Positions 21,976 to 24,282 of a stretch of 64,000 nucleotides of DNA are shown one piece after another. Within the stretch, counting starts at the first letter, position 1. The number at the start of each line of letters is the position of its first letter. The notes under the pieces are model-generated. The model was not told the origin of the DNA. It was given only the letters and a program-made list of their open reading frames with translations, and ran no database searches. A program made the position numbers and the translations under genes. The DNA comes from Dictyostelium discoideum (taxonomy: Eukaryota), in contig CM000154.2 of NCBI GenBank assembly GCA_000004695.1, positions 4,256,001 through 4,320,000 of the forward strand, written 5' to 3'.

Positions 21976-24282
21976 ATGATTAATATTGAAGATATTTCAA
22001 AATCTTCAAACCAAAGTGAAGAAAAACAATTAAAAAGTACAAGTTCAAAACCAAAATACTCATTCGCAGCAAAAAGTTTATTCAAAGGTTCAAATAATAT
22101 TACACCATATTATTTATCAACCAGTAATACATTCCAATGTGTAGCATCTGAGTCAATTCAAACATGGCTTCTTTCGGATGATGGTCATATCTTTACATCC
22201 AGTGGTAATTTTGTTTTAGATGTTTCATCAGGTGGTTATTTTGTTGAATTAGTACAACTTAATTCAAATTCAAAAACTCAAATTTGGACAATTGATACAA
22301 CAAATAATAAAATTCAAAACCAAGGTAATGGTAATTACCTTGATATCGACTGTTTCAATATTTGTGTTGCACCTTTAAATGGAAACGCAACTCAACAATG
22401 GACAACTTTTAGAAGAGCACCAATTCCAACTGGTAATTGGGGCTACTTTCAAAGTGAACAATTGGGTTCAAATAATTATTGGGGTTTAAGTGTATTAAAT
22501 AATAGTACATCATATAATACTAGTGTAGTAATGAATAAAGTTCAAGCAAAATCAAAAGGTCAAATTTGGCAAATGACAAGCGATGGTCACATTTTATCAC
22601 GTTTGGATGGTAATTTAGTATTAGATATTGGTCCATCAATTAATGGTAGTACAACAAACTATTATTTAAATACCAATGTTTACAAAGCAAATGATCTAAT
22701 GCAACAATGGGGTATCAACGAAAATAATCAAATATTCAATCAATATTATCCAAATTTATGTATTGGATTCGTTGGTCAACTTGGAGTTGATTCAACTGTT
22801 AATTGTGTATTAGCTCAACCAAGTAGTGCTTGTGATACTTGTTTCCAATGGATTGCAAATCCAACCTATTCATTAAACCAAATTGTTAGTGAAGTACCAG
22901 AACCATTTCCAGCTTACACAAGTGGTGATTTATTAGCATCATATCAATACCTTAGTAATGATGCAACTTCTAATTTTACTGATGATATTAGATCACTTTA
23001 TACAGGAATCAATGTTAGTTTACAATCCTTTTTAAGTATTGTCACCAATGCAACTTGTCCATCATCAATTCATTCAACTGAAGATTTTTCAAATGTTCAA
23101 AATCAAATCAAAACTGAACTCATCTATGCAATCGATGTCCGTTTAGTATTTGAAAACTATTCTGGTTTTTATAGTAAATTATTTAGTCAAGGTAGTTCAA
23201 ATTTAACAAATTTAGCAAATTTAATTAATGTTGATATGTCATCTAATCAAATGGTTAATGCAAATTATACTGATGCAATTACTAGTATTTTTTATTCACT
23301 TATTTCAGAGATTCCAGTAGGTGGTTCAATAATTGCAAACATTGGTCAATCAGCAGTAGAATTTGGTGAATTAATGTCTCAAAGTAATTATCAAGGTGCA
23401 TCAACCTATCAAGTTGAATTAAGTCAACTCTACACTCATTTAAATACAAACTATGAAAATGAAATGGCAAATGCTCAAAGTATGAAGGATACCATTTTAC
23501 AAGATTGGGGTATGATGAGTAAAACTTATGCATTATGTTTCTTACCAACCAATGATCCTTCCTCTCTCAATATGAATGGGTTAGACTTTGAAAAAATTTC
23601 AGATGTTGCATCTGTAGCTTACGAAATTGCAATGATTCAAATGTTATTACCAACTACTTATCAAATTTACTTTACATCAGCTGGTTATTGGGTACCATAT
23701 TCAGATGGTGATTTCGCTTATAGTGATAACTCTGGAACCTATATTATGGCCACTATCAAGTATAGTAATTCTTATCCTCCAAAGGAATTGACTGATAAGT
23801 TATGGAATAATGGGGTTTCAAAACAAGAATTTTTCTTGTCAGCTTATGGTTGGAATTTAGCTACCTCGCTCACCTACTACAATACTACTAACCAGTATAG
23901 TAATATCTTTAAATTAGCCTTTCCAACAATTAAAAATTTTACAGGAGTACCAATGCAATTTGTAATGACCAATGATGGTGATAATCTTGGTAATTTCACA
24001 GTCAAAACTCATTTTGCAAAATTCTTTTCAACATATTACAGTGTTGGAGATCTTGGTCATCATTATTTCGACATTGCTGTAACTGATATTAACAAAAACA
24101 AGGTTGCAAATTTCACAGTTGACATTAAATTAAAAGCTCTCGAAGGTAGTTATGTTTCAATCAAAACTGGTTCATTAGTTGTTCAGCCAGGTTATGCTGT
24201 TGGTAATCCAATTTGTAATCAAGGTAGTTATTCTCTAATGTTTTCTGCTTCAATTTTAATTCCAATTTATAAATCAGAATAA
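21976..24282 (+). CDS. Ricin-B-type (beta-trefoil, QxW) lectin-domain protein with a large Ser/Thr/Asn/Tyr-rich C-terminal domain of unknown function; candidate lectin-toxin-like protein.
   Basis: Single 768-aa ORF. Repeated QxW beta-trefoil motifs in the first about 250 aa (TQIWTID, QQWTTF, GQIWQMT, QQWGIN) with GxxxLD spacing typical of ricin B lectin. The C-terminal about 500 aa matched no family by eye. Confidence 0.5.

Follow-up and report, generated by a model that had tools for sequence, protein, structure and literature searches.

The window analysed here is a stretch of 64,000 nucleotides from Dictyostelium discoideum (GCA_000004695.1, contig CM000154.2, positions 4,256,001-4,320,000 of the forward strand). 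It carries cupH, a gene of the Cup family, whose product joins a ricin-type lectin part to a C-terminal module of 473 residues. The coding sequence and the parts of the encoded protein, with window coordinates and amino acid (aa) positions, are the following:

21976..24282, plus strand: cupH coding sequence, a single exon (768 codons and stop, ATG start, uninterrupted open reading frame (ORF); coordinates include the stop)
21976..22107, plus strand: N-terminal leader, aa 1-44, hydrophilic (Kyte-Doolittle value over 19 residues -0.5 to -2.1 across the N-terminus)
22108..22449, plus strand: ricin-B beta-trefoil 1, aa ~45-158, with QxW motifs at 62, 102 and 140 (best PF00652 stretch, residues 52-142; alignment with the ebulin B chain)
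22450..22860, plus strand: ricin-B beta-trefoil 2, aa ~159-295, with QxW motifs at 196 and 243 and a degenerate FQW at ~290 (second PF00652 stretch)
22861..23883, plus strand: conserved domain, aa 296-636, predicted to be mostly alpha-helical, with no solved structural relative
23248..23376, plus strand: predicted helical hairpin, aa 425-467, uncharged and Gly/Ala/Ser-rich, with two short flanking beta-strands (family profile and both models)
23884..24279, plus strand: predicted C-terminal beta-sandwich, aa 637-768, of aegerolysin/actinoporin-like fold

The window ORF is the exact sequence of D. discoideum AX4 XP_635652.1 / EAL62142.1 / UniProt Q54FW5, annotated as 'Putative calcium up-regulated protein H' (CupH). 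Over its whole length (100%), it shares 94% identity with CupB, and the 90% cluster that contains it also contains CupB and CupG; identity to representatives of the other Cup clusters, CupE among them, is 80-84%. This full-length identity and the ricin-type N-terminus on a protein of ~770 aa place CupH in the Cup family. Orthologous or paralogous copies are present in D. citrinum, D. dimigraforme and D. firmibasis, and remoter dictyostelid relatives in D. purpureum, Polysphondylium violaceum and Heterostelium album. The Cup family of D. discoideum (CupA-CupI) was described by Coukell et al. in 2004 (Eukaryot Cell 3:61); in that work, Cup proteins are said to shift from cytoplasm to cell membrane when Ca2+ stress is applied and when cells aggregate, and aggregation is said to be blocked by antisense knock-down of Cup. 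Cup expression is controlled by Ca2+/calcineurin (PMC1431509), the proteins have been grouped with the discoidins as cytoplasmic lectins with unknown ligands (PMC3188802), and cupB, cupC, cupF and cupG are strongly induced in chronic hypoxia along with other Ca2+-related genes (PMC12750705). Both cupH and the Cup family are thus already known, and what is added here is a fold-level dissection of the C-terminal module and the set of its relatives beyond dictyostelids.

cupH is the sole cup gene in the window, as tblastn of the CupH protein against it found no second copy. It is also called on the chromosome record CM142511.1, at ~4.393 Mb, and an identical protein is encoded in a second, independent assembly. 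A cupB tandem pair lies at ~3.40 Mb on the chromosome record, compared to ~4.39 Mb for cupH, and cupH occupies a gap in an array of B-box/FNIP genes to which it is unrelated. Given the distance of ~1 Mb from the cupB pair and the unrelated surroundings, cupH is a dispersed copy. The region is very AT-rich, with a GC content of 16-36% around cupH (2-kb windows). The ratio of non-synonymous to synonymous substitution rates (dN/dS) between cupH and cupB is 0.55 overall, with 0.90 for the ricin part, 0.37 for the helical part and 0.53 for the sandwich, on few substitutions. These data bear on the possibility that cupH arose from cupB by recent dispersal and is now functionally redundant or decaying, without a role of its own. 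The separation from the cupB pair would agree with this, as would the 'Putative' label in UniProt, the ricin-part dN/dS near 0.9-1.1 and the absence of cupH from the list of cup genes that PMC12750705 gives for hypoxia. However, the 768-codon ORF is intact despite the AT-rich genome (16-30% GC), the ratios for the helical domain and the sandwich are 0.37 and 0.53, and the protein recurs unchanged in the second assembly; we regard a redundant or decaying copy as highly improbable.

The cupB pair itself (locus L005, 10001-12310 and 14043-16352) consists of cupB and, 1.7 kb further downstream, a paralog of 769 aa. Between these two genes, dN/dS is 0.53 and dS 0.16, the latter being 0.03 in the ricin part versus 0.22-0.32 in the C-terminal parts. 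From the sequences, the far lower divergence of the ricin part suggests gene conversion or a mosaic history.

The N-terminal part of CupH had been assigned to the ricin-type lectins from its QxW motifs in a sequence-only reading of the window, and this assignment was borne out over 295 residues. Residues 1-295 contain five canonical QxW motifs and a degenerate sixth (CFQW at ~290) spaced by ~40 residues, as in two (QxW)3 trefoils. Pfam Ricin_B_lectin (PF00652) matches CupH in two stretches (E 7.7e-14; 52.4 bits, gathering cut-off 29). The two halves align with each other by BLASTP (E 4e-7), which reveals an internal duplication, and the best PDB sequence match of CupH is the ebulin B chain (E 4e-4). 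Combined, motif spacing, the Pfam match, the alignment of the halves and the ebulin match indicate that two beta-trefoils follow a leader of 44 residues. A signal peptide, which the same reading had proposed to look for, is absent from CupH: no hydrophobic N-terminal segment was found in the 19-residue Kyte-Doolittle profile. The N-termini of other dictyostelid Cup relatives are likewise hydrophilic. As they have no signal peptide, Cup proteins would be made in the cytosol.

The C-terminal 473 aa (residues 296-768) are enriched in S (11.8%), N (8.7%), T (7.8%) and Y (7.4%) and gave no Pfam match (E<=1), no NCBIfam match and no meaningful PDB sequence match (phmmer and profile searches), so that the description of this region as S/T/N/Y-rich and without obvious family was correct. 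Relatives nonetheless emerged when 1.84 billion cluster representatives were searched exhaustively with HMMER, residues 296-768 being the query: 152 reached E<=1e-3, of which 62 also passed E<=1e-10 and 9 passed E<=1e-30. A word-indexed profile search of a set of 5.8 billion proteins returned, among the matches listed, almost only Dictyostelium proteins. The module occurs in soil bacteria, in the yeast Lipomyces and in all sampled dictyostelids. Named hosts are Lipomyces starkeyi, Methylovulum, Streptomyces, Streptacidiphilus, Lysobacter, Comamonas and Candidatus Binatia; among species-representative genomes, searched with a five-sequence bacterial alignment as the query, it was found in Pseudomonas kilonensis, P. 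brassicacearum, Rhizobium sophoriradicis, Streptosporangium, Nonomuraea and Spirillospora. Most of the hosts live in soil or the rhizosphere; all of the proteins bear either the annotation 'hypothetical' or one that refers to the lectin domain alone.

Upon local re-scanning with hidden Markov models (HMM), the first ~340 residues of the module were present in all 150 listed representatives and the C-terminal sandwich was detectable in 80 of them; what remains C-terminally is 90-200 residues long (median 134) in 92 of 121 relatives. Invariant or near-invariant residues include R44, Y47, E86, L236 and W331. The module usually stands behind a lectin. At least two QxW motifs are present in 66 of 150 relatives, and Pfam Ricin was matched in those from Lipomyces, Streptacidiphilus and Methylovulum; Lysobacter-like relatives carry a bulb-type (MMBL) lectin N-terminus that scores below the Pfam threshold. 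In one relative, a TIG domain lies C-terminal to the module. A crude hydropathy rule gives signal-peptide-like N-termini for ~25 of 150 relatives, 11 of them with a lipobox-like motif, and some of the relatives are therefore exported. At the bacterial loci, no conserved partner genes (immunity, secretion, MACPF, Toxin_10) were found; the module gene stands alone, with a LysR regulator adjoining it in two cases.

The module proteins of Lysobacter yangpyeongensis (P0039) and Methylovulum miyakonense (P0025; locus L007, 2648-5320) both have the bulb-type (MMBL) lectin N-terminus, and that of M. miyakonense has an additional Ricin match. Both also gave sub-threshold matches to the putidacin L1 lectin-like bacteriocins, with NCBIfam E values of 5.6e-14 (P0039) and 3.8e-11 (P0025), far below the cut-off.

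In a neighbour-joining tree, the dictyostelid sequences form one clade and Lipomyces is placed elsewhere, among bacterial sequences. This topology, which carries no support values, fits horizontal exchange of the module as judged from sequence. As the branches are deep, star-like and unbootstrapped, no donor or direction of transfer is claimed.

The structure of the module was predicted with AlphaFold2. A model of residues 296-768 from an alignment of 16 sequences reached a mean predicted local distance difference test (pLDDT) of 82.8 and a predicted template modelling score (pTM) of 0.81; a model of residues 296-636 from 41 sequences reached 91.8 and 0.89, with an identical topology. In these models, the helical domain begins with a bundle of long helices, after which comes a small region of mixed alpha/beta structure. 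Both contain a strand-helix-turn-helix-strand element at domain residues 131-186 (CupH 426-481), with a strand at 131-135 (to 134 in the second model), helices at 136-150 and 152-172 and a strand at 182-186 (183-186 in the second model). In the family-averaged profile, the arms of this hairpin are the two most hydrophobic 19-residue segments (mean Kyte-Doolittle 1.41 and 1.17) and the least charged, with 2-3% of charged residues, 30-40% of Gly/Ala/Ser and a Pro/Gly turn between them. The C-terminal part is modelled as a beta-sandwich of ~130 residues, as in aegerolysins, and its best and most consistent structural matches are the lipid-binding parts of pore-forming toxins.

From the lectin-plus-large-module layout, the sequence-only reading had proposed a lectin-targeted pore-forming or toxic protein and had named aerolysin/ETX-MTX2, Cry domain I and Toxin_10 folds as candidates for the C-terminal part. 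None of these folds was found by profile search or fold comparison: CupH showed no profile or fold match to an aerolysin, ETX-MTX2 or Toxin_10 beta-pore module, neither the seven-helix bundle of domain I of three-domain Cry toxins nor an Endotoxin_N match, and no match to the elongated helical bundle of ClyA-type alpha-pore formers. In its updated form, the proposal would make CupH a toxin for predation or defence, in which the trefoils bind a glycan and the sandwich the lipids of the target and the helical hairpin unfolds into an alpha-helical pore; in CupH, one chain would then do the work of the two components of aegerolysin toxins such as OlyA/PlyB or Cry34/Cry35. The conserved uncharged hairpin speaks for it, as do the lectin-plus-effector layout kept across bacteria, yeast and dictyostelids, the signal-peptide-like or lipobox-like N-termini of some relatives, and hosts that are soil or rhizosphere competitors or prey of amoebae. 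Yet the helical domain is unlike any known pore former, the bacterial loci offer no immunity or secretion partner genes, and the knock-down phenotype of Coukell et al. was reportedly developmental and not one of feeding. Furthermore, the dictyostelid Cups lack a signal peptide and are described as cytoplasmic (PMC3188802), and their regulators are Ca2+/calcineurin (PMC1431509) and hypoxia (PMC12750705), regulation by prey not being known. We consider a toxin unlikely, although it retains some weight because of the fold company of the sandwich and the exported bacterial relatives.

We consider it moderately probable that CupH is instead a cytosolic lectin that docks conditionally on membranes. 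The protein would combine three parts, namely two putative glycan-binding trefoils, a helical domain of 340 residues into which the hairpin is packed, and a sandwich of the aegerolysin/actinoporin type. In characterised proteins of this type, the sandwich docks on specific membrane lipids. Upon a rise in Ca2+, Cup would be induced and attached to membranes via the beta-sandwich, with the trefoils contributing avidity or specificity for glycoconjugates. The helical domain would then act as the effector and stabilise or remodel the membrane, either by oligomerising on the bilayer or by partial insertion of its hairpin. While gene identity, domain architecture, the modelled fold similarity, the wide distribution of the module and the lack of a leader come directly from the analysis, lipid binding by the sandwich, glycan specificity from the trefoils, insertion of the hairpin and the physiological role are inferred; conditional docking fits the shift from cytoplasm to membrane that Coukell et al. 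are said to have seen, and would give it a structural basis.

Several observations weigh against this interpretation. The structural evidence consists of AlphaFold models throughout, and confidence in the beta-sandwich is moderate (pLDDT means of 61-87 over blocks of 10 residues). A sequence link to aegerolysins was not found: Pfam Aegerolysin (PF06355) matched none of 16 family members at E<=1, and the PDB profile search gave no aegerolysin at E<=10. The hydropathy of the hairpin (1.4 for the best 19-residue window) is below that of typical transmembrane helices, and the hairpin could be the buried core of the helical bundle. Finally, UniProt labels CupH 'putative', and purifying selection on cupH is weakly shown, since the overall dN/dS against cupB rests on few substitutions.

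Two further explanations were considered. Firstly, CupH might be a galectin-like cytosolic sensor or sealer of damage: a wound would admit Ca2+ and bare luminal or extracellular glycans, to which the trefoils would bind, the sandwich would bind lipid, and the helical domain would patch or mark the membrane. The relocalisation of Cup to the membrane that Coukell et al. reportedly observed under Ca2+ stress agrees with this idea. It would also account for a leaderless cytosolic lectin (PMC3188802), for induction by Ca2+/calcineurin (PMC1431509) and by the stress of chronic hypoxia and reoxygenation (PMC12750705), and for the modelled similarity of the sandwich to lipid-binding folds. We think it distinctly unlikely, however, as it leaves unexplained the same module in bacteria, partly with export signals, and no paper in the literature searched links Cup to damage, infection or repair. 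A search of that literature for a connection between Cup and aegerolysins likewise gave nothing relevant.

Secondly, CupH might serve in adhesion or carbohydrate binding during development. Its sandwich would then be no more than an Ig-like or adhesion module of the generic kind seen in DdCAD-1, its helical domain would be a scaffold, and there would be no direct action on the bilayer. The moderate hydropathy of the hairpin would suit such a role, and Cup expression is said, again after Coukell et al., to be highest at aggregation, the stage that knock-down reportedly blocks. We find this very doubtful: the best and most consistent matches of the modelled sandwich are lipid binders and not adhesins, and the whole module is kept in non-aggregating bacteria and yeast, which argues for a more general biochemical activity.

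We advance as a tentative proposition, the odds being against it, that the Cup C-terminal module represents a new and widespread lectin-targeted membrane-active family. It would comprise a helical effector of new fold with a membrane-inserting hairpin and an aegerolysin-like lipid anchor, exchanged horizontally among soil bacteria, soil yeast and the dictyostelid ancestor and re-used inside the cell as a Ca2+-triggered stabiliser or permeabiliser of membranes for aggregation.

The molecular activity of Cup has been unknown for two decades, and the family had been described as dictyostelid-specific. With more than 150 cluster representatives in soil bacteria and a yeast, a predicted aegerolysin/actinoporin-like sandwich and a confidently modelled helical domain, Cup function becomes open to experiment. 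The dissection of the fold offers a possible structural rationale for the Ca2+-dependent membrane association reportedly seen for Cup by Coukell et al. If the bacterial and fungal relatives are indeed membrane-active, they would constitute a new family of lectin-guided effectors. The finding that a module of 'unknown' status since 2004 is not dictyostelid-specific should be of moderate interest to specialists of Dictyostelium, toxins or lectins.

The remaining features of the window are listed below:

2507-9238, plus strand: talin gene in two neighbouring long ORFs, of 1029 and 1195 aa, that encode IRS-type PTB, talin rod and I/LWEQ domains
9295-10800, minus strand: RsmB/F (NOL1/NOP2/Sun) methyltransferase
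14505-15689, plus strand: fragment of a thiamine pyrophosphate (TPP)-dependent enzyme
16847..21039, minus strand: left part of the tandem array, B-box and FNIP-repeat copies (self-BLAST repeats, ORFs, Pfam FNIP E 8.6e-61, zf-B_box E 2.1e-5)
26613..38400, minus strand: right part of the tandem array, more B-box/FNIP copies, 86-94% identical to the unit at 16.8-19.2 kb
44121-45062, plus strand: LIM-domain protein
45883-46722, minus strand: DNase II

The array contains at least six units, each with a B-box zinc finger ORF and an FNIP-repeat ORF, in copies that are 86-94% identical. Several units are broken up (e.g. 19356-20104) and may for this reason be pseudogenes. The sequence-only reading had placed the lectin gene inside a paralog array. 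The array is real, but a tandem array of cup paralogs around cupH was ruled out, as the copies are minus-strand genes that encode B-box/FNIP proteins and tblastn against the window gave no further cup match. As the gene and family had been described and the array context was misread, the original observation is not new. The talin gene is probably split by a short intron near 5600-5650. Over the talin region, the GC content (32-36%) is well above the window average. The methyltransferase, the TPP-dependent enzyme fragment, the LIM-domain protein and DNase II are ordinary housekeeping-type genes. A direct repeat of 260 bp (43568-43826 and 44028-44286, 84% identical) lies upstream of the LIM-domain ORF and overlaps its start. 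The ORFs at 39576-40919 (minus strand, 447 aa) and 49569-52334 (plus strand, 921 aa) gave no Pfam match at E<=1e-3.

Compared with the rest of the Cup family, CupH has the same length and architecture and no structural difference; cupH differs from the cupB tandem pair in being a solo copy. Like Cup, the discoidins are leaderless, abundant, developmentally regulated cytoplasmic lectins whose cytoplasmic ligands are unknown (PMC3188802); in contrast to CupH, they have an unrelated lectin fold (discoidin domain and H-type lectin) and no helical or aegerolysin-like module. The aegerolysins (OlyA6/PlyA of Pleurotus, Cry34Ab1, RahU, AfIP-1A) and the actinoporins (FraC, Fav, bryoporin) have no detectable sequence similarity to CupH. 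They are free proteins of 13-20 kDa with a separate MACPF or Toxin_10 partner, whereas the CupH sandwich is fused C-terminal to a helical domain and a lectin. Structures of Cry34Ab1/Cry35Ab1 (4JOX/4JP0) comprise a beta-trefoil lectin, a membrane-active module and an aegerolysin (Cry34). By analogy, this pair and the LSL-type lectin-aerolysin fusions may follow the same logic of parts as CupH, a lectin with a membrane-active module, which is the comparison that the sequence-only reading had drawn; the CupH effector differs from theirs in being helical and without a solved relative, and is not a beta-pore former of the aerolysin-like, Toxin_10 or ETX-MTX2 kind. With colicins, with ClyA/Hbl/Nhe/Cry6, with Cry domain I and with the Bcl-2 family, the CupH models appear to share a bundle of long helices that shelters an uncharged hairpin rich in small residues.
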